From a virus (taxonomy: Duplodnaviria; Caudoviricetes): a stretch of 41,984 nt of DNA. Made by a program: the position numbers and the translations under genes. Each line of letters starts with the position of its first letter. The stretch's first letter is position 1. The notes beneath the pieces are model-generated. The model worked only from the letters and a program-made list of their open reading frames with translations, was not told where the DNA came from and searched no databases. This document shows positions 12,329 through 39,211 of the stretch, one piece after another. The DNA lies in IMG/VR virus record IMGVR_UViG_3300017716_002541, positions 1 to 41,984 of that record; one strand, written 5' to 3'.

Positions 12329-14206
12329 ATGCCGCAAATCGCTCAGGCTGCGGCAGTCGCCTTCAACTACATCCAGACCGCGTTTGCCGCCGTCGAGGCT
12401 GGCGGCGCGACTATTGCCCAGACCATCACCGTCACAGCCGTAAAGGCTGCTCAAACTATTGCCGCCGATGCGGCGTTATCTGCGCTTTCCGGCAAGCCTC
12501 GCACTGAGGGATCACAGACCGCTTTCCGCGCCGACACAGACGCTGGAATCCCCGTCGCCTATGGCCGCATCGGCTGCGGCGGGGTCATCAACTACCGCGT
12601 GGCCTATGACGCCACCAACCGATACCAGACCCTGTTCTGCACGGTCTCGGCTGGCCCGATCAAGTCGTTCGTCAGCTTCGCGGCGGACGACATTGTTACG
12701 ACCTTCGACGGGACGCTGAACAAGGCCATCGACGGCGACCACGCCGGGTTCATGTGGCTGAAGACCAGCCTCGGGACGCAGCCGCAAACGGCGTTGACCT
12801 CACCGACCGGAACAGGCGCGGGGATCGCCGCTCCGGATTGGGGTACCGATCACAAGCTGAACGGCCTCGCCTGCTACGCCCTGACGATGTTCGAGAACTC
12901 GAAGGGCGATGAGTTCCGGGGTGGGGTAGTCAAGCCCCTGCACGTCATTGAGGGCGTGTACGGCTGGGACCCCCGGCTGGACAGCACCTATCCGGGCGGG
13001 TCGGGTTCCTGCCGCCTGCTGACGCCTTCGACCTGGGTGTGGATTGATGAGGGTGCGATTGCAGCCCTCAACTGGTGCATTGGCCGATGGGCTGGTGACT
13101 CTGGCGGCGGAACCTATGGCGTCCCGTATGCCTGCTCGCTGATCGCCGGGATCGGTTCCTCGCTGGACGGGATTGACGTTGCATCCTTCGTGAACGCGGC
13201 CAACGTGGCGGACGCGAACGGCTGGAAGGTCGCGGCCTATCCGACGACGAAGGACGACAAGTACGCGGTCCTGACGAACCTGCTGCAAGCCTCGGGCGCG
13301 GTTCCGGCGCGCAAGGCAGGGCAGATCAGTTGCATCACGAACGGCGAAGATCAGGCGTCTGTGGTGACCATCACGGCGGCGGACACGGCGGGGCCTGTCG
13401 AGGTGTCGCTGGGTCAATCGCGGCTCGAGCGGATTAACACGGTCCTGCCCCGGTTCTGGTCGGAAGATCACCGCTGGGACATGGTGCAGATCGCGCCGGT
13501 CTCTAACTCAACCTGGGTCACAGAGGACGGCAGCAAGAAGCGGACACGGGGCATCGACTATCCCTATGTCCCCGCCGCCAATCAGGCCGCCCAGCTTGGC
13601 TATTACGACATCGCCAACGCCCGCGAGCCGGTGACCGGAACTGTGCCGTTCAAGCCGCACATGAGGCGGATTGAGCCGGGCGATTGTTTCACCTTCGATG
13701 AGCCGGGCTTCCTGCTGGACGGCATCAAGGTCAAATGTCTGCGCCGCGCCTATGACCCTATGACCGGCGGAGTGCGGATCACCTTCCGGCAGGAGACGGA
13801 CGCCAAACACGCGGCGGCTCAGGCTATGACGGGCACCGCGCCGGGTGACGCGGGAGCGGGTTCCCCTCCAGCCGCTCCGACCGCCCCGACCATCACAAGC
13901 GTCACGGCCAACTACGACACCAGCGGCCTGATCGTCACGGCCAGCCTCAGTGTCCTTGCCAACGGCCCGGCAGAGGATGGGCTGGACTGGTCGCTGCGCT
14001 GGCGTGTGGCCTCCGGGTCATGGGTTGAAAGCCTGCACACCGACCAGCTTACGGACCCGACGCTGCAAAGCGGCCTCGTCCCGCTGGGTGAGACCCTTGA
14101 TGTGCAGGTCGCCTATTTCGTGGGCGGCGTTCGGACGGCCTGGTCGGCCACCACCACGGTCGCGATCAACGAGTCCGACGTGATTATCGACGGAAATGAC
14201 CCATGA
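12329..14206 (+). CDS. tail tip / host-specificity protein (J-like)
   Basis: IPVAYGR, WDPRLDST motifs; C-terminal Fn3-like region. Confidence 0.8.
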   Translation: MPQIAQAAAVAFNYIQTAFAAVEAGGATIAQTITVTAVKAAQTIAADAALSALSGKPRTEGSQTAFRADTDAGIPVAYGRIGCGGVINYRVAYDATNRYQTLFCTVSAGPIKSFVSFAADDIVTTFDGTLNKAIDGDHAGFMWLKTSLGTQPQTALTSPTGTGAGIAAPDWGTDHKLNGLACYALTMFENSKGDEFRGGVVKPLHVIEGVYGWDPRLDSTYPGGSGSCRLLTPSTWVWIDEGAIAALNWCIGRWAGDSGGGTYGVPYACSLIAGIGSSLDGIDVASFVNAANVADANGWKVAAYPTTKDDKYAVLTNLLQASGAVPARKAGQISCITNGEDQASVVTITAADTAGPVEVSLGQSRLERINTVLPRFWSEDHRWDMVQIAPVSNSTWVTEDGSKKRTRGIDYPYVPAANQAAQLGYYDIANAREPVTGTVPFKPHMRRIEPGDCFTFDEPGFLLDGIKVKCLRRAYDPMTGGVRITFRQETDAKHAAAQAMTGTAPGDAGAGSPPAAPTAPTITSVTANYDTSGLIVTASLSVLANGPAEDGLDWSLRWRVASGSWVESLHTDQLTDPTLQSGLVPLGETLDVQVAYFVGGVRTAWSATTTVAINESDVIIDGNDP

Positions 14207-15171
14207 CGACGACGGTCAACATCCGCCTGAAGATGCGGGGACGGCTGGCGGCGGACTGGACCTCGGGCAATGAGGTGCTGCTGGCCCGCGAGATGGGCAT
14301 CGAGACCGATACCCGAAAGTTCAAATTCGGGGACGGGACGACCGCCTGGAACTCGCTGGCCTATGCGGGGCCAGCCTACGCGACAGGCGTCGTGGCGTTC
14401 CTTGAAACCCCGAGCTCGGCCAATCTTCGCGCCGCTTTGACGGACGAAACTGGCACGGGTGTCGCGGTCTTCGCGGACGCCCCGACCCTAAACGGTCAAG
14501 TCACCGTCAAGGGGACAGGCACCAGCACGGGCGTCGCTTTCCAGACGCAGGACAGCGCGGCAGTCGCGGGCGTGACCATCACCGATAACGGTCGGATGAT
14601 GGGCGGAACGACAACCTCGACCTTCCCCTATTATTTCGTCAGCAGCGGATCAAATACCCTTGTTGGTGAACGCAGCAGCAGCGCGACCAGCCTGACCTCT
14701 AGCGTCGTCTCGGGCGGGGCTTTCCGCAACCCGGACACCACGAACGGCAACTATTGCTCGCTCCAGTTCCTCGGCGTCACGACGACCGCTGCGGGCATTA
14801 CGGCGGGCCACATCGCCTGTGTGATGACGGATCATACCAACGGCTCGTTCGATAGCGATTTGGCCTTCGTCACCCGGAACGCCAACAACCTCCTAGTGGC
14901 CGGAAGGCTGACCAACGTGGGCGACTGGACGGTCACGGGGTCCATGCAGGCATTGTCCGCAACGGCCATTCCGGCAGGCGGGACAGCCGGGGCCGGGGTC
15001 AAGATTTTCTCGACCAGCAACTTCGGTGTGTTCGGCGGTTCCGGCGCTCCGACTTTGTCTGCCGCCAAGGGTTCGCTCTACCTGCGCTCGGACGGCTCCG
15101 GCACCGGTGACCGGGCCTACATCAACACCGACGGCGGGACCACTTGGACCGCCCTGACAACCGCCGCCTAA
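14203..15171 (+). CDS. tail fibre with Mtd_N-like N-terminal anchor
   Basis: RGRLAADWTSGNEVLLAREMGIETDTRKFKFGDGTTAWNSLAY matches the major-tropism-determinant N-terminal motif; C-terminal GAPT..KGSLYLRSDG. Confidence 0.8.
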   Translation: MTTTVNIRLKMRGRLAADWTSGNEVLLAREMGIETDTRKFKFGDGTTAWNSLAYAGPAYATGVVAFLETPSSANLRAALTDETGTGVAVFADAPTLNGQVTVKGTGTSTGVAFQTQDSAAVAGVTITDNGRMMGGTTTSTFPYYFVSSGSNTLVGERSSSATSLTSSVVSGGAFRNPDTTNGNYCSLQFLGVTTTAAGITAGHIACVMTDHTNGSFDSDLAFVTRNANNLLVAGRLTNVGDWTVTGSMQALSATAIPAGGTAGAGVKIFSTSNFGVFGGSGAPTLSAAKGSLYLRSDGSGTGDRAYINTDGGTTWTALTTAA

Positions 15172-21468: not shown

Positions 21469-21661
21469 GACGCGCCTCCAGCAGCGCCAGCTCCCTGTCC
21501 AGCGCGTCGTCATTCGCCGCTATCGGATCTCCGAAGTCCAGCGCGAAGCCGCCGGCACCGTCGGAGCGCAGGCTGCGGACCTTGAGCCCGTGCTCGGCTG
21601 CGAAGGCGTAGGCGGTCTGCAGGTCGCGCTTCCGGAGTCCTTGGCGCCTGGCACTACTCAT
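21449..21661 (-). CDS. putative excisionase / recombination directionality factor
   Basis: Small protein with a basic N-terminus, immediately upstream of and overlapping int. Confidence 0.5.
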   Translation of the reverse strand: MSSARRQGLRKRDLQTAYAFAAEHGLKVRSLRSDGAGGFALDFGDPIAANDDALDRELALLEARHGQGGS

Positions 21662-21691
21662 CTCCCACCTCATTGGTACTGACGGGTGCGG

Positions 21692-22042
21692 TCACCACAG
21701 GTCCTCCGAGAACAGTGTCCCCTTCACGGTCATCTTGTCGGCGCTCGTCTGCCCGGCAGCAATGGCCACGACGCAGGCCCGCTTCCTGTCGGCGTATGTG
21801 CCGTCCGAGAGGATGAAGCCGCTGTTCCGCGTCGTCTGCTCGTCAGCGATCATGCCCCGCTCTTTCAGGTGAAATTCGAGGCCGCAGAGGTTGTGGTGCC
21901 GGGCGGGCGGCGGCGCGCTGATGATTGTCCGCACCGAGCGCGTATCGCCTAGAGATGGGACAATCTCGTAGGCCGCAGCGATCACCCGCAGTCCGCCCGT
22001 CTGCCAGCCACCGAGGGCCTGTTCGCGGTATGGGGTGGTCAT
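21692..22042 (-). CDS. conserved phage hypothetical protein
   Basis: RHH...GFILSDGTYADR..A..A..AGQ...LFSEDLW; AAGGA RBS. Confidence 0.75.
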   Translation of the reverse strand: MTTPYREQALGGWQTGGLRVIAAAYEIVPSLGDTRSVRTIISAPPPARHHNLCGLEFHLKERGMIADEQTTRNSGFILSDGTYADRKRACVVAIAAGQTSADKMTVKGTLFSEDLW

Positions 22043-22200
22043 GCTGGGGTGTCCTTTTGGTTCACTTCGGCTGACGCCTTCGTCCCTACCGAGCTTGCAG
22101 CGGTAGCTTTCGCCTTGCGGTCTTCGCGGACCCGCCACTCCTTCGGGAAATAGCAGCCTGAAGGGTCACCGGGTTTTCCGTAGTCAATGCGCTTGCTCAT
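22039..22200 (-). CDS. small hypothetical protein (53 aa, not in ORF track)
   Basis: MSKRIDYGKPGDPSGCYFPKEWRVRED...; ATGA overlaps at both ends; 3' part encoded by an R-type repeat. Confidence 0.6.
   Translation of the reverse strand: MSKRIDYGKPGDPSGCYFPKEWRVREDRKAKATAASSVGTKASAEVNQKDTPA
22055..22100 (-). repeat. R-type hairpin end, copy A
   Basis: Minus strand CTGCAAGCTCGGTAGGG-AC-GAA-GGC-GTCA-GCC-GAA-GT-GAACCAAAA. Confidence 0.8.
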
Positions 22201-22463
22201 GCTCCGCGCCCTCCACCGCGGTCGTCAATCGCGCCGCTGAACTGCTCGGTTCTGGCGATGAGTTCCGCAGACGAGATCGGCTTCCCATCCTCCTTATTCC
22301 CCGGTGCGGGGATGACGGCGAGGGCTTGGACGACGTTGGCGACGCGGCGAGCCTCTGCTGCTGTCAGGTCTTTCGGGAGGCGCAGATCAGCCCGAACGTC
22401 AGCCCGCAACTGTATCGGCACGATGAAATAGTCGCCGTGATCGCCGTCGCGGAAATAGCTCAC
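22197..22463 (-). CDS. hypothetical protein
   Basis: GTG start overlapping the upstream stop; LPKDLTAAEARRVANVVQALA. Confidence 0.65.
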   Translation of the reverse strand: MSYFRDGDHGDYFIVPIQLRADVRADLRLPKDLTAAEARRVANVVQALAVIPAPGNKEDGKPISSAELIARTEQFSGAIDDRGGGRGA

Positions 22464-22948
22464 TGTTCTCCCTCCCCGTGTTTTGTGCATTCCGACGCTT
22501 GCAGCGTCTCCATACCTGGCGAGACTGAGGCTGCGGGCGGGGGTGGCATAACCGCGTGGAGAGCCATCATCGCGCCGGTCAGGCTGACAAGAGCGCCCTG
22601 CGGATCTTTCGGAAGGCGATTGAGGGCGTCATTCCCCATGTTCCAGACGCCTTGAAGCCAGTCTTTCGGGACGACAACAGCCCCCTCCGCTGCACGGTGT
22701 GTATCGGCGTCAGCCGATGAACCATCACCACTTACCGGAGAGGCGAGGGCGCGGAGAGCTTCTTGAAGGTCTGTCAGCCGCACCTCCAAGGTTGCGTGCT
22801 CCCGAGCGGATTGCAGGTATTCCGCCTCATCACCGCGCTGCGATTTCCACTTGTGCCGCGCCTCATGCTGACAGCCCGCATCACGCTTCCGCGCCGCAGC
22901 CTTAAGTCGTTCCACCCCAGCTACAGGAGGGCTTGCGGTCTCGCTCAC
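22460..22948 (-). CDS. hypothetical chimeric protein containing an L and an R repeat
   Basis: Coupled ORF; GSSADADTHRAAEGAVV is encoded by the L repeat. Confidence 0.65.
   Translation of the reverse strand: MSETASPPVAGVERLKAAARKRDAGCQHEARHKWKSQRGDEAEYLQSAREHATLEVRLTDLQEALRALASPVSGDGSSADADTHRAAEGAVVVPKDWLQGVWNMGNDALNRLPKDPQGALVSLTGAMMALHAVMPPPPAASVSPGMETLQASECTKHGEGEQ
22480..22726 (-). mobile_element. putative hairpin-ended cassette 1 (L end 22672-22724, R end 22480-22525)
   Basis: L: TGGTTCAT-CGGC-TGAC-GCCG-ATAC-N22-GTTGT; R: AT-GGA-GACGCT-GCA-AGCGTC-GGA-AT-GCACAAAA. Confidence 0.55.
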
Positions 22949-23385
22949 GTCTTCTCTCCATCGTCAGAGGGTTGGGTCGCTGTGGCTTTCAGAATGGCGA
23001 TGCACAGGGCCAGCTCGGGGGCTTTTGCGGTCGCTTCGGTCGGCTGAAATGCCGCGCGGTCGGTATCCAGCGCGAGGGCATAGGCCCGCCAGTATTTGTG
23101 GTGGACGTTCTGGCCGACGCTCCACGACCAACACGGATAAACCCGCGATGCCAGCGCGAGGGCGGCGTCGAGACTGGTGGTGACGGGCGGTATCGGGCAG
23201 CAGCATTCTTCCGCGCCGATCTCGTACAGAAGGTCGCCTTCCCACTCTTCGTCCGTGCGGATGTTCTCGCCGCCCTCGCTGTTCAAGCCGCCGTACTGAA
23301 GCGCGATGCAGATTTCCGCGTCGATGGACTGCGACCCTTCGGAGGCCCCCTCCAGCCGGGCCAGTAGCTCGCTATGGGCGGTCAT
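22945..23385 (-). CDS. phage ABA-sandwich/BC1872-like hypothetical protein
   Basis: IDAEI...PPVTTSLDAALAL...PELALCIAILKA. Confidence 0.65.
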   Translation of the reverse strand: MTAHSELLARLEGASEGSQSIDAEICIALQYGGLNSEGGENIRTDEEWEGDLLYEIGAEECCCPIPPVTTSLDAALALASRVYPCWSWSVGQNVHHKYWRAYALALDTDRAAFQPTEATAKAPELALCIAILKATATQPSDDGEKT

Positions 23386-23606
23386 TGTTCCGGCCTCCAC
23401 GCGACCGGGTAGAAGCACTTGCTGCGCTCCCAGTTTCCGTTGCCCTCGATGATCGTCTCTCCTTCGCTCCAGTGGCGCACGTTTGGTAGCATCGGGTGCG
23501 TCACGCGCGACTGAATGCGGGCCTCTCTGCCGTCCTTGTCGATGCCGACAATCCACGTTCCGTCCGTTGGCGCAGAGGCCATATCGCGCGTATGTGCTGC
23601 GGTCAT
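23382..23606 (-). CDS. hypothetical protein (DUF551-like)
   Basis: DMASAPTDGTWIV...PVAWRP. Confidence 0.6.
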   Translation of the reverse strand: MTAAHTRDMASAPTDGTWIVGIDKDGREARIQSRVTHPMLPNVRHWSEGETIIEGNGNWERSKCFYPVAWRPEQ

Positions 23607-24340
23607 TCCGATTGTCCTTGTTCCTGGTTGGCGGGGGATTGTTTCACTTCGCCGGGAAGGCCCGGCTGCGTACCCGGCGAGGGACCTTCAACGGCAGTTC
23701 TGGCCTTGAAGCTGACGACCCAAACCCACGGGTTCAGGTCAGCAGCGCCAGTGCCGTTGATCTTGTCCCAAAGGTCGAAATAGGCATCGCGCGGAAACTC
23801 AGTGTGCCACGGCAGATCATCAGCCCCCCGATACGAAGGCATCCAGTCAGCATCTTTGACTTGCAAGCCCTCGGCTTTGGCGTCGCTCTCGCTGCAATCC
23901 AGCAGGCGCTCAATCCGAACGTCGGTGATTTCCAGCGTCAGCCGTGACGCATCGCGGGGCATATGGATTGAGACGACCACGTCCCGCTCCTTCCATGCCA
24001 AGTCGCGCCGTGCAGGCCAGCCGACCTCCGCACCGTCAGCGGCATAGGTCCAGAGGTGCGAGTCGCGCCGCAAGGTCTCGCGAACCCAGAGCGTGTCGCC
24101 CCGAGTGCCGTAGGGGCACAGGCTGTTCGCCGGGTCCGCGACGAAGGCCGGAACAAACCCCGACTCGTCCAGCCAACGCAGCGGCTCGCCCTTCACAACC
24201 CGGCGTGTCTGTGTCTTCCGCCCATCCAGCAAGGCGCGAACCATCGGACCCGAGAACAGGATCGGGCGCGATCGGCTGTCAGCTACAACTGGCCCGTCCG
24301 TCGCAGGCTGGGTATTTTGCGCAGCAAAATGGACCATCAC
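23603..24340 (-). CDS. ASCH/PUA-like conserved phage protein
   Basis: PILFSGPMVRALLDGRKTQTRR, CPYG..GD.LWVRET, SIHMPR.ASRLTLEITDVRIERL, NPWVWVVSF. Confidence 0.8.
   Translation of the reverse strand: MMVHFAAQNTQPATDGPVVADSRSRPILFSGPMVRALLDGRKTQTRRVVKGEPLRWLDESGFVPAFVADPANSLCPYGTRGDTLWVRETLRRDSHLWTYAADGAEVGWPARRDLAWKERDVVVSIHMPRDASRLTLEITDVRIERLLDCSESDAKAEGLQVKDADWMPSYRGADDLPWHTEFPRDAYFDLWDKINGTGAADLNPWVWVVSFKARTAVEGPSPGTQPGLPGEVKQSPANQEQGQSE
23638..24338 (-). mobile_element. putative hairpin-ended cassette 2 (L end 24278-24336, R end 23638-23685) carrying the ASCH-like domain
   Basis: L: TGGTCCAT-TTTG-CTGCG-CAAA-ATAC-N22-GTTGTAGCTGAC; R: AC-GCA-GCCGGG-CCTT-CCCGGC-GAA-GT-GAAACAAT. Confidence 0.6.
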
Positions 24341-24717
24341 CCCTCTCCACCCGGAGTAGGGACACCCGGTTCCTGCTTACGAGAGAGGGCGGCACGGGCG
24401 CGGTCAGCCCATTCAGTCGCAAGGCCATAGCGCGCAAGGCCCTCGTCAGCCTTCTGGCGGCGCAGGTCGCGCATGACCCCGGCACAGCAGCGAAGGCGAC
24501 CCTCGGCCAGTTCCAAAGCCTCCCTCAGCCTCTCCACTTCCACAGAGGGATTTTGTTCACTACGGCTCTGCGAGCCTTCGTCCCCACCGCGCTTGCAGTT
24601 CTCGACATTCTGACAGGGGCAATAGTCGTCAGACCCGCGACAGCCGCAGCGCGCTCCCTGTTCGATTTGCCATTTCGAGCGGGTCTCGGGCACCGGAGGA
24701 GAGGGCTTACGTCTCAT
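24337..24717 (-). CDS. hypothetical chimeric protein (Cys-rich N-terminus from cassette 3)
   Basis: CGCRGSDDYCPCQN, then R-repeat-encoded peptide, then PSVEVERLREAL. Confidence 0.65.
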   Translation of the reverse strand: MRRKPSPPVPETRSKWQIEQGARCGCRGSDDYCPCQNVENCKRGGDEGSQSRSEQNPSVEVERLREALELAEGRLRCCAGVMRDLRRQKADEGLARYGLATEWADRARAALSRKQEPGVPTPGGEG

Positions 24718-25015
24718 TGGTCGCCCCTTCGATGTAGCGGGCGATGCGATCCTCTAGCGCCTCGTCGTAAGGCCCTGTCATCCCGAGCGCGTCGCACAAC
24801 TCTTGCACTTGGCTGTGGCCACTGGCCATCGTGACCGTGCACCAGCAATGCGGGCGTCCGTCGTCGTCGTATTCGCCGTCCGTCTCAAACTCCCACTTCT
24901 TCGCGTCGGCCACCATGTTCAGGAAGGCTTCACGGGCATCCGAAAGGGGGTCAGCTACAACAGCCCCATCGGCGTCTCGGTGGGTATCCTCGCCCTTGAG
25001 CGAGGATGAACCAAA
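24550..25015 (-). mobile_element. putative hairpin-ended cassette 3 with a 15-bp flanking duplication
   Basis: CACTTCCACAGAGGG at 24535-24549 and 25016-25030; imperfect terminal inverted repeats TTTTGTTCAC / ATGAACCAAA; L end 24950-25013, R end 24550-24598. Confidence 0.72.
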
Positions 25016-25315
25016 CACTTCCACAGAGGGGGGAGGGGCGGCGTAGATGGGCGTTTCGGTGATCTCAAACTCGTTGGCGTCTTCGTCCGACACGCCTTGG
25101 CGCTTGGTGGAAAGGCGGTGCCGGGGTCCGTCCTTCCATTTGTTTTCGGTGTAGAGCCAAGCAACCGGCTCTCCCTCCCCTTCATGGAGGGGGGCGGCGG
25201 AAAGCATGGCTTCCCAGATCGCGCGAGGGTGGAACGGCTCGTTGGTCGCGTAAGCCGAACGCAGCATCGCCTCGGTCGGCTCTCTCGGCACATTCACCGT
25301 ATTCTCTCTGGTCAT
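24707..25315 (-). CDS. hypothetical chimeric protein (Ea22-like motifs)
   Basis: VPREPTEAML..WEAMLSAAP, PVAW, TPIYAAPP; AAGGA RBS before ATG 25315. Confidence 0.7.
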   Translation of the reverse strand: MTRENTVNVPREPTEAMLRSAYATNEPFHPRAIWEAMLSAAPLHEGEGEPVAWLYTENKWKDGPRHRLSTKRQGVSDEDANEFEITETPIYAAPPPSVEVFGSSSLKGEDTHRDADGAVVADPLSDAREAFLNMVADAKKWEFETDGEYDDDGRPHCWCTVTMASGHSQVQELCDALGMTGPYDEALEDRIARYIEGATNET

Positions 25316-25338
25316 TTGGTGTCCTTTTTGGTTGGGGG

Positions 25339-25428
25339 TCACGCCGGGTCCTTCCAGACGATGGCCAGCCAGATCAGGGCGAGGATCGAGAGCGGCCAGT
25401 CGATCAGGCGGGGCCGGCGCGGGGTCAT
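25339..25428 (-). CDS. small membrane peptide (29 aa)
   Basis: MTPRRPRLIDWPLSILALIWLAIVWKDPA; ATGA overlap with the methyltransferase stop. Confidence 0.45.
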   Translation of the reverse strand: MTPRRPRLIDWPLSILALIWLAIVWKDPA

Positions 25429-26117
25429 GCGACGCGATCCTGGTGGGTAGCCGAGATGTGCGCGATCAACTGGCGACCGAGGTGTTCGGTGTAGGCGGGA
25501 GGGATGGCCTCGCTCATTTCGGCGAGCGTTGCCCAGTCCATGCCCAGCGCCTCTGACGCGGCGGCCTTGTGACCACCCTTCCAAACATCACGGGTTCCGC
25601 GGCCTCCAGCCTTGGCCGCCCGCTTCCGGGCGTGACCGCCGTACACACCGACAACAGGGCGCGCGTCATGGTCGCAGGGCCGCGGCGCCGAGATCGCGAC
25701 GTTGCTCTCGAACAGGCGGTGGCGCTGAAGCCTGCACCCTTGCGATTGGAGCCCGAACATCGATCCGCAGAGCGTGACCGGATGGCGCATCGCCCAGCCG
25801 GCCTCCTCGACGTTCTCGATGATCCACGGCAGGCCGGACGCCTGCAGCATCGCCCGCGTCTGGTCTATCAGGAGCGGCGCGCCCTTAGCCCCCGGCGCGT
25901 GGCGCATGGCCGAGTATCCCTGACACGGCGGGCTCGCGTGAATGGCATCGAACGACCGAATGAACCGCTGGTCGAGCGCGAGCACGTCCGTCTGGATGAA
26001 CGCGAACGGATACCGGGGCTGCGGCGCAATATCGACGCCGACCACCTCGAACCCGGCGCGGCGATAACCCATGGCAGCGCCGCCGGCACAGCAGAACAGG
26101 TCAAGCAATCGCGGCAT
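25425..26117 (-). CDS. C5 cytosine DNA methyltransferase (compact)
   Basis: Motif I LDLFCCAGG, IV ASPPCQ, VI IENV, VIII RHRLFE, X EAIPPAY. Confidence 0.88.
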   Translation of the reverse strand: MPRLLDLFCCAGGAAMGYRRAGFEVVGVDIAPQPRYPFAFIQTDVLALDQRFIRSFDAIHASPPCQGYSAMRHAPGAKGAPLLIDQTRAMLQASGLPWIIENVEEAGWAMRHPVTLCGSMFGLQSQGCRLQRHRLFESNVAISAPRPCDHDARPVVGVYGGHARKRAAKAGGRGTRDVWKGGHKAAASEALGMDWATLAEMSEAIPPAYTEHLGRQLIAHISATHQDRVA

Positions 26118-26557: not shown

Positions 26558-27021
26558 CGCGGCCCCTCCAGCAGCATCGGGGGCATCTGCCCGTCGCGGT
26601 AGGCCTGCTCGATGCGGGGCTGCATGCTCTCGCTGACGGTCGAACCGTCCGGCAGCATCGTGTGTGCCAGGAACTCGTCTTCGATCGTCGTGATGCCCGC
26701 GGTGACCGCCTCCAGCTTCGCCTTGATAACGAGCGCCAGAGCGCGCCACCGCTGGCGGCCGGCCTGCTCCCACGCCTTCTCGGCCTCGGCCGGTGACCGA
26801 AGCTGGCCCTTCGCGGAGGTGTGCGTGAACTCCCTCGCCTTCGGGTCCGGCATGGGCAGGACGAACTTGATCCGGCGCCCGGCGAGCTCGAAGAAGATCA
26901 TCGCGCCGGTCGGGTTGGTCGCGTACCCGAACGACGACGCCTTGTAGCGCCGAAGGATGGTCTCGATCTCGGCCCGGCTCTTCTCGACCGAGACGCTGGT
27001 TTCGGAGGCGTACCGGGTCAC
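26554..27021 (-). CDS. conserved phage hypothetical protein
   Basis: YASETSVSVEKSRAEIE...QRWRALALVIKAKLEAV. Confidence 0.75.
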   Translation of the reverse strand: MTRYASETSVSVEKSRAEIETILRRYKASSFGYATNPTGAMIFFELAGRRIKFVLPMPDPKAREFTHTSAKGQLRSPAEAEKAWEQAGRQRWRALALVIKAKLEAVTAGITTIEDEFLAHTMLPDGSTVSESMQPRIEQAYRDGQMPPMLLEGPR

Positions 27022-28058
27022 GACAGCTCCTTCCGGCGCCGGGTGATGGCCTTGTTCAGGTCCATCGCCAGCTGGGGCTGGTCGCGCTCCAGATCGCCGA
27101 ACATCTCCTGATCGGACGGGTTGGCCAGCAGGTGGTCCAACTGCTCCAGCGACAGGCCGTCCATGTCTTCGATCAGGCGGCGCTGCCACACGATGACCGG
27201 GTCTTCGGTCTTCACCACCTCGACAGCATCGCCCGGGAAGCCATCGGCCCCGACCGTCGCCGCGTCGTCGGCAGCAGTGGTCGGGGCCTCATCCGACGCC
27301 GGGGGAGCGGCGTCGAAGTCGGGAATGTGGTCTTCAGGGTCGAGGGCGTTGTGGACGGTGAAGCCCTCGGTTGGCTCTCCGGTCGGCGCGGCGAGGCGTT
27401 CGGCCAGGTTCGGAGCCTCGCGCTGCGTCACGTCACGGACGCCGAAGGCCTGCCCCTCGACCTCCTCGGCGGCATATTCGTTGCCGATCTCCTCCGGGAA
27501 GGCGCGGCGCAAGGCAGCGGCCTCGGCGCACTTCTCCAGCTGGCCGCGGGGGCGCTTGGCCCACATGGCGTTGGGCGCCTTCGTATCCCGTTTCTTCGTC
27601 GCGTAGGTCTCGATCCAGAAGGTCTTGGGACCGACGAAGGCGACCTTCTGGCCGGCCACCAGCCGATAGACGGTGCATTGCGCCCACTCGGGATAGCGGA
27701 TCACGGCGCCGCCGAGGTCTTCCTCGATCATCGGGCCGTATTCGGTGTCCTCGAACCCGGCGAACGAGCCGGTCCGCATGGCCGTTGTTCTCAGTTCCGC
27801 AATGCCAGGCCAGACGGTGTCGACCATCCCGCCGCGCTTGGAGTCGTAGATCGGGACGATCTGGACGGGCTTCTTGAAGATGTCGAGGTTGCGCGCCCGG
27901 CAGTACGCCAGCGCCATGACGATGCTGTCCGGCGAGGCGGCGGCGGGGAAGACGGCCTCAACGAGGACCTTCCAGCCGCTCTTGTCGATGCCGAAGCGCT
28001 CCTCAACGACCGGGTGGAACGGGAGGCGCGGGGCCTGAAATTGGACGACGGCGTTCAT
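27018..28058 (-). CDS. bet: Redbeta-family single-strand annealing protein
   Basis: YCRARNLDIFKKPVQIVP, GIAELRTTAMRTG, MWAKRPRGQLEKCAEAAALRRAFPEE. Confidence 0.9.
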   Translation of the reverse strand: MNAVVQFQAPRLPFHPVVEERFGIDKSGWKVLVEAVFPAAASPDSIVMALAYCRARNLDIFKKPVQIVPIYDSKRGGMVDTVWPGIAELRTTAMRTGSFAGFEDTEYGPMIEEDLGGAVIRYPEWAQCTVYRLVAGQKVAFVGPKTFWIETYATKKRDTKAPNAMWAKRPRGQLEKCAEAAALRRAFPEEIGNEYAAEEVEGQAFGVRDVTQREAPNLAERLAAPTGEPTEGFTVHNALDPEDHIPDFDAAPPASDEAPTTAADDAATVGADGFPGDAVEVVKTEDPVIVWQRRLIEDMDGLSLEQLDHLLANPSDQEMFGDLERDQPQLAMDLNKAITRRRKELS

Positions 28059-28060
28059 GT

Positions 28061-29011
28061 TTACGCGGCTTTCGGTTGACGGTTGTTATCGTTGGCCTCT
28101 GCCGCTTGCAGCTCGAGCTCGGTGTCGATGCGCTTGGCGGCGTAGGCAGGAAGGGAGAGGTAGCTGGCGTCAGCACCGCCCGGCCCCGGCCAGATGCCGG
28201 TGTCGATGCAGCGGGCCATGGTGCGGAGTGCGGCGCGGACCTGGAGCCTGCCCCTCTCAATGTCGTCGGGGGTCAGCTGGGTGACGCGGACGCAGAAGGG
28301 CTCGGCCTTCTCGACCCAGACCAGCGCGAAGGCTTCCATGGTCAGGCCGAGGACGGCTTCCAGCCCCATGCCGACGACGGCCGCTTGAACGTTGTAGCCA
28401 TAGCTGGCCAGCGACTTGGCGAGCGCATCGTCAGTCACCGACACCGTCGTCTTGAGGTCCGCGACCACGCCCGACCCGTTCGGGATCACGTCCGGGCGGC
28501 TCTTGATCCAGATGCCGGTCTCCGCGTCCTTCCAGATCAGGAACCGCTCAACCTTGCCGTCGAGGATGCCCGCCTTCACCAGCGGGTGACGGGCGAGGCT
28601 TTCGGCCATGCCGGTCACCGCGTCCAGATCGTCCTGGGTGATGACCGTGCGGCCGGCGAGCGTCTGTTCGTCACGCCAGACCTTGGCCTCCTTGGTGCGC
28701 CAGTCCGACCAGCAGTCCGGGCGGGTGACGAACTCCTTCTCCAGCCCATCCCGACCTTCCAGCAGCAGCCGGTGAGCGAGGCGGCCCAGCGAGAAGGCGG
28801 GGCTGTCCTCAGGCGGGGCTGCGGCCGGGTTGAGGCTCGACCGGGCATAGAAGTGAGCCGGGCTTTCGGCCCAGATCGTGCGGAGGCCGCTGGACGACAC
28901 CGAGGGGCCGTCCGTGATCTGGGTGTGATACCGATCAAGCGAGAGGTTCCAGACACCGGCCTCGGTGATCTTCTGGCCCTCGGGGAGGTGGCGGGGGTTG
29001 GCGAGGCTCAT
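28061..29011 (-). CDS. RecE/exonuclease VIII-like PD-(D/E)XK nuclease
   Basis: SVSSSGLR, LGRLAH, KSRPD, ADLKT, YNVQAA; adjacent to bet. Confidence 0.88.
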   Translation of the reverse strand: MSLANPRHLPEGQKITEAGVWNLSLDRYHTQITDGPSVSSSGLRTIWAESPAHFYARSSLNPAAAPPEDSPAFSLGRLAHRLLLEGRDGLEKEFVTRPDCWSDWRTKEAKVWRDEQTLAGRTVITQDDLDAVTGMAESLARHPLVKAGILDGKVERFLIWKDAETGIWIKSRPDVIPNGSGVVADLKTTVSVTDDALAKSLASYGYNVQAAVVGMGLEAVLGLTMEAFALVWVEKAEPFCVRVTQLTPDDIERGRLQVRAALRTMARCIDTGIWPGPGGADASYLSLPAYAAKRIDTELELQAAEANDNNRQPKAA

Positions 29012-30563: not shown

Positions 30564-31340
30564 ATGACCCAGCTAGCGATGGACCACTTCGTTACGGCCC
30601 GAGCCGGGTTCCGGCGTCGGCTGTCCGCGTCGCGCGCCGAGCGCCTTGGTCGGCCAATCAAGGGCCACGAATTTGACGACCATGGAATGCTGATCGAGGT
30701 CGACGGACCACCCGCCCCTCCGATGGCTTTCCACCTCGTGTACTCGGACGCGCAGAACCAGTTGAGCGGCCGCTGCGTCACGCTCCAGTCCATCAAGGAA
30801 GAGATCGCCGACCTTCGACTCTGGGCATACTGTCACATGAGGTTGGCGGTCAGAGCGTTCATCGCGTCGCGCGTGGTCGAAGCGACCGACCTCTCAACGG
30901 GCGAGGTTCACGAGGACGGCCTGTCGTTCTTCCGAAACCACCCGATGCTCAGGCCGATGACAGCCGAGGGCATCGCGGCCATGTCGCCCGAGCTGATCGC
31001 ACTCCAGGAATGCCGGGACGAGATAATCGTCTTGAGCTTCGTCGGAGCGTCGGACGGGGATTTCGATGAGGAAGAGCAGGAGCAAATCGTCCGGCACGTC
31101 ATGATCCGCACCGACGAGCCCTTGAACGAGACGGTCATCCGGCAACGCGTTCGGTCGTGGGCACCTGACGAACGATCGTTTGAGCGCGCCCTAAACCGGC
31201 TCTGCGCCGGCGAGGGCAACGCCACCGAGCTCATGCGTTCGATTTGCCGTGTGATCGACGCTGACGGTGAGATTGACCCCGAGGAAGTCGCGTTCGCCAG
31301 CGAGGTTCAGGCTCGACTAGCGGCCGCTGGACGACTGTGA
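30564..31340 (+). CDS. WYL-like + TerB-like domain protein (moron)
   Basis: LVYSDAQNQLSGRCV...AYCHMRLAVRAFIASRV (WYL-like); ASDGDFDEEE and ADGEIDPEE (TerB-like); GGAGG RBS. Confidence 0.7.
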   Translation: MTQLAMDHFVTARAGFRRRLSASRAERLGRPIKGHEFDDHGMLIEVDGPPAPPMAFHLVYSDAQNQLSGRCVTLQSIKEEIADLRLWAYCHMRLAVRAFIASRVVEATDLSTGEVHEDGLSFFRNHPMLRPMTAEGIAAMSPELIALQECRDEIIVLSFVGASDGDFDEEEQEQIVRHVMIRTDEPLNETVIRQRVRSWAPDERSFERALNRLCAGEGNATELMRSICRVIDADGEIDPEEVAFASEVQARLAAAGRL

Positions 31341-37059: not shown

Positions 37060-38627
37060 ACCTCGTCGACACCCGCGAGATCGTCCTGCGCGATTATCAG
37101 GCCAACGCCATCGACGCGCTGCGAGAGAACATCCGCAAGGGCGTGAAGCGGCTGATCCTGTGCGCCGGCACCGGGGCCGGCAAGACGCTGACCTCCGCCG
37201 AACTGCTGAAGGCTGCGCACCGCAAGGGCAGCTATGCCCTGTTCATCGTCGATCGCGTCGCCCTGGTCGATCAGACCAGCGCGGTGTTCGACGAATACGG
37301 CATCCCGCACGGCATCGTTCAGGGGATCAACCCGCGCTGGGCGCCGCGCGAGCACATCCAGATTTGCTCGGCCCAGACGCTGGCCCGGCGCGTCCTGCCC
37401 CGGCAGCCCGACCTGATCGTGGTCGATGAGTGTCACTGCCAGTTCAAGGCGACGCAGGACTACATGGCCGCCAATCCAGACGCGGTGAAGATCGGCCTGA
37501 CCGCCACTCCGTTTACACCCGGCCTCGGCCAGCATTGGGACGGCATGGTCAACGTGATCCCGACCCGGGCACTCATCAACGAGGGCTATCTGGTCGAGCC
37601 GAAGATCTACGTGGCGAAGAGCCCGGATGATCGGGATTTCGGGCTCAACAGCTTCGGCGAGTTCTCCGACGAAGGCGCCGCGTCGGCCGGGATCAAGATC
37701 GTCGGCGACGTGGTCGAGGAATGGATCGGCAAGACGCAGGAGCATTTCGGCGGGCCGGCGAAGACCATCGTGTTCAGCCCGACCGTTGAGCATGGCCGCG
37801 AGCTCTGCGCCGCCTTCTCCGCCGCCGGGTTCAACTTCCAGCAGATCAGCTACCTCGACAAGGACGACGACGAGCGCGCGGCCAAGATCGCGGAGTTCCG
37901 GCGTCCGGACAGCCTGATCCATGGCCTGATCTCGTGCGGCGTCCTGACCAAGGGCTTCGACGTTCCCGACGTTCTGATCGGGGTCTCGTGCAAGCCCTAC
38001 CGCAAGAGCCTGTCGAGCCACATGCAGGAGATCGGCCGGATCATGCGGCCCATTCCAGGGCAGCAAAAGAAGGCCCTCTGGCTCGATCACAGCGGCAACA
38101 TCGAGCGGTTCGCGCTGGATATGTTCGATGTCTGGGAGAACGGCGCAGGCGAACTGTCGAAGGCGGAGAAGCGGGACTCGAAGCCTCGGGAGCGTAACGA
38201 ACAGGTCCGCGAGAAGGTCGTCTGCCCGGAATGCTCCGGCGCGATGCGGGGCAGCACCTGCATGGCCTGCGGCTGGGAGCGGCCAGCCCGGTCACACATA
38301 CACGCCGTCGAGGGTGAGCTGCGCGAGTTCGACGCTGCGGCCCTCGGGATCGAAGCACGGGCTGGGCTGCGGGCGGATTGCCTGAAGCATCCCCGCCGGG
38401 TTTGGGAAGCCGCGCTGACCGCCTGCGCAAGCCGGACGCGGAAGGGCGAGGACCATGCCCGCCGATGGGCCTATGGCATCTATCGCGGCGTCTATCCCGG
38501 GTCGAAGCTGCCCTTCGGCTGGTACGATATCCGCATCCCCTGTGATGTCGACACCGGCGCCCTGTCTCTGGTCGAGCGGGAAATCCTGCGCTTCCGGAAG
38601 AACAGCAACGCGAGGCAGGCGGCATGA
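37053..38627 (+). CDS. superfamily 2 DEAD/DEAH helicase with Zn ribbon
   Basis: LRDYQ, GTGAGKT, VDECH, GLTATP, KGFDVP, QEIGRIMR, CPEC..CMAC. Confidence 0.93.
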   Translation: MLNLVDTREIVLRDYQANAIDALRENIRKGVKRLILCAGTGAGKTLTSAELLKAAHRKGSYALFIVDRVALVDQTSAVFDEYGIPHGIVQGINPRWAPREHIQICSAQTLARRVLPRQPDLIVVDECHCQFKATQDYMAANPDAVKIGLTATPFTPGLGQHWDGMVNVIPTRALINEGYLVEPKIYVAKSPDDRDFGLNSFGEFSDEGAASAGIKIVGDVVEEWIGKTQEHFGGPAKTIVFSPTVEHGRELCAAFSAAGFNFQQISYLDKDDDERAAKIAEFRRPDSLIHGLISCGVLTKGFDVPDVLIGVSCKPYRKSLSSHMQEIGRIMRPIPGQQKKALWLDHSGNIERFALDMFDVWENGAGELSKAEKRDSKPRERNEQVREKVVCPECSGAMRGSTCMACGWERPARSHIHAVEGELREFDAAALGIEARAGLRADCLKHPRRVWEAALTACASRTRKGEDHARRWAYGIYRGVYPGSKLPFGWYDIRIPCDVDTGALSLVEREILRFRKNSNARQAA

Positions 38628-39211
38628 ACGCACCACTGCCTGCCGGTCCCTTCGGCTGCATTCTCGCTGACCCGCCTTGGGCCTTCCGCACCTACAGCGG
38701 CGAGGACGCAGTGCCGACGCTGGCGAACGATCCCTACCCGACCATGACTCTCGACCAGATGAAGGCGCTGCCTGTGGCCGACGCCGCCGGACCGGACTGC
38801 CTTCTCGTCATGTGGGTGATCTCGTCGCACATCCCGCAGGCACTGGAACTCGCCGAGGCGTGGGGGTTCACCTACCGCAGCCTTGGTCCGGTCTGGATCA
38901 AAGAACGGTCTCCGGACCAGACCGAGATGTTCGGCCATGGCCCGATCTGCGACCTCGGCATGGGGTACTGGTTTCGGCAGCAGGCGGAGATCGCCTTCGT
39001 GTTCGGTCGCGGATCACCGACCCGGCTCTCGGCGGGCGTCCGTCAGGTTATGGCGGAGCCGCGCCGGGAGCATAGCCGGAAGCCAGACCTGACCCACGAG
39101 CGCGTCGAGCGACTTGTCGCCGGGCCGTATCTGGAACTGTTTGCCCGCGCCCCGCGCGAAGGCTGGGCCGTCTGGGGCAACCAGACCGACAAGTTCGCGG
39201 TGGCGGCATGA
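38624..39211 (+). CDS. MT-A70 family N6-adenine methyltransferase
   Basis: ILADPPW, YPTM, EHSRKPD, LELFAR, WGNQ. Confidence 0.92.
   Translation: MNAPLPAGPFGCILADPPWAFRTYSGEDAVPTLANDPYPTMTLDQMKALPVADAAGPDCLLVMWVISSHIPQALELAEAWGFTYRSLGPVWIKERSPDQTEMFGHGPICDLGMGYWFRQQAEIAFVFGRGSPTRLSAGVRQVMAEPRREHSRKPDLTHERVERLVAGPYLELFARAPREGWAVWGNQTDKFAVAA

Follow-up and report, generated by a model that had tools for sequence, protein, structure and literature searches.

The 41,984-base window analysed here is the whole of virus record IMGVR_UViG_3300017716_002541, a temperate tailed phage with terminase, portal, capsid, repressor, RecT, exonuclease VIII and integrase. Its small-gene region, with a cytosine methylase on one side and the integrase on the other, holds an array of seven copies of a short hairpin-bearing element, called L or R according to orientation. 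Three L and four R copies follow each other along the minus strand in the order L, R, L, R, L, R, R and bracket units of 466, 701 and 246 bp, and all seven fall in open reading frames (ORFs). This is the arrangement that an earlier reading of the sequence, hereafter the original prediction, had described. Boxes A, B and C in the list below are the conserved motifs of the element.

24954..25015, minus strand: L1, in gene-sense orientation (box A, hairpin with a 6-bp inner stem, box B, 11 nt, box C); stable-loop strand plus
24551..24605, minus strand: R1, the inverted element, with a GAA/GTA internal loop and a GCA triloop; stable-loop strand minus
25016..25030, minus strand: left copy of the 15-bp direct repeat flanking cassette 1
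24535..24549, minus strand: right copy of the same repeat
24550..25015, minus strand: cassette 1, 466 bp (L1, the end of one ORF, the start of the next ORF, R1)
24707..25342, minus strand: chimeric ORF with a C-terminal domain supplied by L1; likely start at 25315
24337..24717, minus strand: 126-aa chimeric ORF, with an N-terminus from the cargo, then R1, then the target gene's own C-terminus
24282..24338, minus strand: L2, beginning at the start codon of the 245-aa gene
23638..23704, minus strand: R2, with a full box C, near the end of the 245-aa gene
23603..24340, minus strand: 245-aa ORF that crosses L2, a phrog_874 domain and R2 without leaving its frame; cassette 2 measures 701 bp
22671..22726, minus strand: L3, within the 162-aa ORF
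22481..22545, minus strand: R3, without box C, at the end of the 162-aa ORF
22460..22948, minus strand: chimeric ORF of 162 aa in which cassette 3 (246 bp) lies in frame
22056..22107, minus strand: R4, without a partner in the window, at the end of a 53-aa ORF
27018..28058, minus strand: RecT single-strand annealing protein, a candidate for the joining step proposed below
28061..29011, minus strand: exonuclease VIII (RecE-like), the partner of RecT

The original prediction separated L and R into two repeat families with imperfectly inverted outer ends. The inverted relation holds, but it is not limited to the ends: L and R are one element of about 60 bp, R being the reverse complement of L over the whole length. 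Read in the L orientation, box A (GGTTCAY) is followed by a variable hairpin and then by box B (RTACCYACCG); a spacer of 11-12 bases leads to box C (GGCTGTTSTAG), which is optional. The spacing, previously given as exactly 22 nt, takes either of two values in relatives (22 or 23), and many copies lack box C. The seven copies are the only ones in the window. Their motif-plus-hairpin scores are 33-64, against one match (15.3) in 10 resampled windows, and a covariance model whose training set includes these seven copies gave them 32-59 bits, with the next best match at 9 bits.

Pattern scans of viral contigs, metagenomes and genomes yielded 181 distinct cores and 124 hairpins at 169 overlapping loci; these are loci rather than genomes, many of the contigs are related to each other, and the final counts omit L213 (a duplicate of the window) and L121-L123. 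The closing pair of the cores is AT/AT in 99, AC/GT in 76, AA/TT in four and a wobble in two, hence Watson-Crick in 179/181. Stems vary while pairing is kept, as originally claimed: 78 aligned copies show 33 double, compensatory changes, a number reached in 0/500 shuffles, and while related sequences can beat this shuffle control, slid registers nevertheless pair much less well. When box A-box B matches were taken with no filter for a hairpin, 132/162 pass the stem test of our script; the other 30 are, by inspection, minimal GC-GNA-GC hairpins (18) or longer stems with extra mismatches (12). The same box A-box B pattern gave no match in resampled sequence totalling 370 kb. In the strand on which R reads forwards, the loops are GNA (41), GNNA (13) or CTTG (20), together 74/105 against a background of 15/404, and no GNA loop occurs on the opposite strand. 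Mismatches in the inner stem are GA/GA or GNA/GNA (tandem G.A pairs), and both CTTG loops and GNA/GNA zippers are stable. GNA mini-hairpins are described as far more stable as DNA than as RNA (PMC13037366). Translation of boxes A and B uses different reading frames, and the length of hairpin plus spacer keeps one frame class in 38/51 L copies. Conservation at the protein level is thus ruled out by the use of several reading frames, and the original prediction was right to place it at the nucleotide level. Because the fold is kept by compensatory changes and the DNA mini-loops lie on one strand only, the evidence points to a single-stranded DNA signal under selection and tolerated by the protein, rather than to a protein or RNA signal.

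The copies are also arranged in pairs, as had been proposed. Orientation alternates in 57/73 neighbour pairs, against 43.7 expected (p=0.0002). A larger set of neighbours comprises 59 L-R, 45 R-L and 27 same-orientation pairs, with median gaps of 351, 538 and 973 bp, respectively. L-R units span 231-1227 bp and the frame is open throughout in 41 of the 59. R4, the supposedly extra copy, is indeed unpaired in the window but has an L partner in the relatives L293 and L304. Pairing of arms specific to each L-R couple was considered and ruled out, as L does not covary with its own R (30 pairs).

Cargo differs at the same sites in relatives, in agreement with the predicted diversity of cargo and chimeric proteins. 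At the site of cassette 1, four phages (the window, L135, L144 and L304) carry different cargo and mostly different hairpins; relatives of cassette 3 retain L3 and R3 around other cargo. The phrog_874 domain of cassette 2 bears the element in none of 44 other phage loci with this domain. A total of 167 contexts comprise 119 flank classes, 105 hairpins and 150 cargo edges, with one flank-by-hairpin four-cycle, and 15 of the 25 flank classes with several members bear more than one hairpin. Flank, hairpin and cargo reassort, and they do so at boxes A, B and C. Sequence identity stops at the outer edge of box A, at the end of box B or within box C, and at 33/48 distinct breakpoints the outward identity between copies that have a hairpin in common extends over just 7-11 bases. 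These breakpoint positions fit site-specific cutting and short-homology crossover alike. In two relatives (L278:8636-8697 and L022:4929-5010), mini-ORFs of about 25-30 codons consist almost wholly of an R element and a linker.

Cassette 1 is flanked by the 15-bp direct repeat (25016-25030 and 24535-24549) that the original prediction overlooked, and the same repeat is found in L135, L144 and L304 (16 bp in L304). The predicted empty-site allele exists as DNA, in a contig of run X12 (record 2) that joins the left flank of cassette 1 straight to the right flank, and as protein, in P0011, P0013 and P0019; the filled form P0008 has one domain in common with P0011 and one with P0013. L1-R1 is a true insertion, given the flanking duplication of 15-16 bp, the different cargo in four phages and the precise empty site. 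The empty site could instead come from deletion between the repeats. Direct repeats of at least 13 bp occur at 6/56 pairs, against 0.49 expected (0/5000 permutations). Duplications mark only these six pairs, at three sites, and the claim that L and R are the ends of mobile cassettes is supported for L1-R1 but not for every pair. A flush target duplication is unlikely to be the general rule: it is flush at one of the three sites and absent at 50/56 pairs.

The element also occurs in prophage-like regions of the genus Brevundimonas, and for this reason the host of the window phage is likely Brevundimonas or kin. Positive genomes of the genus (G001, G051, G057, G086, G203, G219 and G227) hold 1-4 copies each, within ORFs, in prophage-like DNA or on one plasmid-like contig; the latter is an 85-kb contig with a single copy (L323:9908-9969) and also with apparent resistance genes. 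Carrier phages include the integrase/RecT type of the window, a polymerase-primase-helicase type (G279, G283) and an Erf type (G278, G286); within one host group, the genomes range over siphophage-like, podophage-like and P22-like kinds. One loose pattern matched 40/276 genomes, most matches being without a hairpin and a control pattern often matching too; a first, too loose scan had given three real copies among 120 matches. The covariance-model search of 151 family genomes found real copies in two, and nine weaker matches in eight others were chance on inspection. A narrow mini-hairpin pattern, weak in that it also missed G001, had no match in 401 genomes of the class. BLASTN of the array region against 50,697 annotated phages matched coding parts only (28 records), and a single element as query gave only chance matches in phages and plasmids. 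Elsewhere in the window are a tail protein with an Mtd_N domain (14203-15171), with no reverse transcriptase among 36 window proteins scanned, a TerB-domain gene adjoining the repressor (30564-31340) and two DNA methylases of C5 and MT-A70 type (25425-26117 and 38624-39211). The element-bearing phage G279 has a queuine tRNA-ribosyltransferase-like gene (L284:742-1512).

Two families of repetitive extragenic palindromes (REPs) invite comparison. Like CGTC-tagged REPs (Di Nocera et al. 2013, PMC3733652), the L strand of the element has a tag, an AT-closed hairpin and a CCA-containing tail, and the majority of copies combine AT..AT or AC..GT closure with an ACCCA tail. As in CGTC REPs and in the SRM system of the GIY-YIG nuclease Ssn (Chenal et al. 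2025, PMC11893778), inverted pairs carry the tags outside and a gene or spacer inside. Six mini-hairpin cores are shared with CGTC REPs of the genus Brevundimonas. However, the phage tag is GGTTC and not CGTC, and the SRM pattern is found at <=1 mismatch on either strand in 0/167 element contexts, while 9/40 host REPs match it exactly. The stable loops of the element lie opposite the tag (56 vs 8, of 105), whereas host REPs show a weaker bias towards the tag strand (27 vs 16, of 36). Moreover, in contrast to CGTC REPs and Ssn, the element is intragenic and in frame, is restricted to phage-like DNA, and brackets varied domains rather than a nuclease. SsnA cuts about 3 bases before its tag, an offset also found at site 1, but the commonest outer breakpoint of the element is the tag edge. 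In genomes of the genus, three host GIY-YIG (Ssn-type) genes lie between ordinary CGTC REPs (L496:405-950, L497:409-1056 and L498:395-973), and a gene with an HsdR N-terminal domain has CGTC REP dimers on both sides (L500:291-1810), a possible REP-bounded cargo on the host chromosome.

The second likeness is to GTAG-1 and GTAG-2 REPs (PMC3733652, PMC2817692, PMC8266576), which also form inverted pairs. The stable-loop strand of the element starts with a GTRG head in 114/158 cores (it deviates in 44/158, and CT often stands just 5' of it, 78/165), followed by two extra bases GT (139/158), the stem-loop and a three-base GAA tail (135/158); the GTAG layout used here is the text description in PMC3733652. 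Unlike these REPs and the REPINs, with their REP-associated tyrosine transposases (RAYTs or TnpA-REP, which are HUH nucleases), the element is neither extragenic nor high-copy in chromosomes, and no RAYT is present in the element phages (0/14 records). The RAYT-like domain PF01797 occurs in 5/121 Brevundimonas genomes, with unrelated palindromes or none and no element nearby, which rules out a link to a host RAYT. Some Y1 (RAYT-like) genes in genomes of the genus (L461-L463) are flanked by a GGAG-headed palindrome family, CGCGGACC. IS200/IS605 elements make no long target duplications (PMC2817692).

Shuffling at phage gene borders has precedents as well. PeSL cassettes of T4-like phages (Arbiol et al. 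2010, PMC2839356) are repeated stem-loops where accessory genes shuffle; unlike the element, which is intragenic, inverted-paired and moves domains, they are intergenic promoter-terminator units that move whole genes. Relaxed recombination by Rad52-like proteins (De Paepe et al. 2014, PMC3945230) lets temperate phages exchange small pieces of genes through short stretches of common sequence, but needs neither a conserved strand-specific hairpin nor an L-then-R order. Rfam gave two matches for window positions 21500-25600 (E 1.9 and 4.6), far below the cut-offs, and no description of the element was found in the full-text literature searched, a search to which most subscription journals are external. 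The prediction that it matches no named family thus holds for Rfam and for the attC motif (0/167), but the element has relatives in build and resembles known REP palindromes. By its sequence it seems to behave like a REP pair, yet to belong to neither the CGTC nor the GTAG family. We consider it undescribed as far as searched: a REP-like element with a new use, the in-frame bracketing of protein domains in phage genes.

The element is likely the place at which these phages cut and join DNA to assemble chimeric early proteins. We give a probability of about 0.5 to the following mechanism: folded ends are cut on single-stranded DNA by a nuclease acting in trans, and the piece is joined at a shared linker by annealing or small-circle integration. 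When the DNA is single-stranded, each cassette end would fold on its own strand, and the nuclease, which might come from the host or from another element and be Ssn- or RAYT-like by analogy, would cut a few bases outside the hairpin. The piece would then enter the shared linker by RecT/Erf-type annealing or small-circle integration, duplicating the linker, and later crossovers in boxes A-C would exchange cargo and hairpins. At somewhat worse than even odds, we also entertain a domain-level cassette system in which a dedicated or hijacked single-strand hairpin nuclease cuts paired translated hairpins, so that domains move in frame between unrelated phages of one host.

Several observations weigh against the mechanism of cutting and joining proposed above. 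No part of an L is more alike to its own R than to another R (30 pairs). Two of the three duplication sites, both in L510, have repeats of 15 and 13 bp that lie 8/8 and 11/4 bases off box A. Breakpoints cluster at motif edges, as plain homologous crossover would also produce. In P0012, two copies of the cassette-1 linker enclose a domain and no element lies between them; a domain related to this one is L-R cargo in P0016. No circle junction was present in the contigs examined (contigs only). As for the enzyme, whose co-occurrence had been suggested as a check, no gene is common to all element-bearing records in an all-against-all comparison of 12 phage records and seven genome stretches, in which ORFs cut at stretch borders could be missed. 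No transposase was found encoded, as already stated in the original prediction: Y1 transposases are absent from 14 phage records, and no element copy flanks a transposase in phage, plasmid or genome searches. GIY-YIG genes occur in 3/20 phage records, none adjoining an element. The only nucleases in 117 of the 188 element-adjacent frames, the portion scanned, are three HNH matches and one MmcB-like match; the other frames scanned encode ordinary accessory domains.

Rather doubtful, though to be taken seriously, is the alternative that the element is a passive shared linker, at which phage annealing proteins recombine as at any short homology, and that the fold persists because it serves some other purpose on single-stranded DNA, such as a priming signal, a nuclease-resistant cap or a decoy. 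The same region indeed contains many identical hairpin-free linkers of 20-70 bp that are shared, shuffled and join unrelated gene pieces, and breakpoints at motif edges agree with this. RecT and exonuclease VIII are close by, G278 and G286 have Erf-like genes, and GNA mini-hairpins withstand nucleases and have roles at primase sites and N4 promoters (PMC13037366). However, the 7-11 bases shared outward fall short of the 23-27 bp given for Red-beta (PMC3945230), no annealing protein was matched in G279 (17 large ORFs scanned) or G283 (13 scanned), a part of each proteome, and a passive linker alone leaves the L-then-R order and the flanking duplications unexplained. Hairpin-free linkers at window positions 24334-24402 and at other junctions in 21900-25320 are up to 100% identical between otherwise unrelated phages, and many are imperfect palindromes, C-rich and then GGAG-rich; they may be a second element family or a target class. 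The original interpretation as a whole is partly supported; exchanges also take place within the element (boxes A, B and C) and at these linkers.

It is improbable that L and R are the terminal inverted repeats of a non-autonomous DDE mini-transposon with captured coding DNA and a long target duplication. L and R are reverse complements, and at site 1 the ends are near-perfect inverted repeats of 9-10 bp, flush with the 15-16-bp duplication, for which an empty site exists. Against this, few pairs have a duplication, and at two of the three sites it is not flush with the ends; a folded single strand is suggested by hairpins of variable length and by the bias of the loops to one strand; and the phage, plasmid and genome searches gave no autonomous copy. 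An RNA regulatory structure in the early transcript is very unlikely. By a rough pattern test, 43/105 L copies lie at a start codon and 43/66 R copies within 45 bases of a gene junction; nevertheless, the loops are DNA-type triloops, no Rfam match is better than E 1.9 and, because the element is used in both orientations in one operon, only R copies give the transcript the form that folds well. That the sites are attC hairpins of the integron type, recombined by a tyrosine recombinase, is scarcely credible. Such hairpins are folded single-strand sites with a bulge, the window phage has an integrase, and attC clusters do occur in phages (PMC9892861). The element sites, though, are inverted and alternating rather than direct, and no integrase was matched among the ORFs scanned from G279 and G283. 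The attC boxes are RYYYAAC...GTTRRRY, a pair present in none of the 167 contexts, and this reading is largely refuted already.

How unrelated gene pieces are joined in frame in tailed phages is an open question, usually credited to chance joining and selection. A defined, structure-conserved site at such joints, with filled and empty alleles known, makes the question directly testable. If domains are indeed moved by cutting at paired hairpins, this would be the prokaryotic equivalent of exon shuffling, would have a recognition site of its own, and could lead to a new single-strand DNA enzyme. Should the element be a passive linker instead, it would still be an undescribed strand-specific DNA signal within coding sequence.

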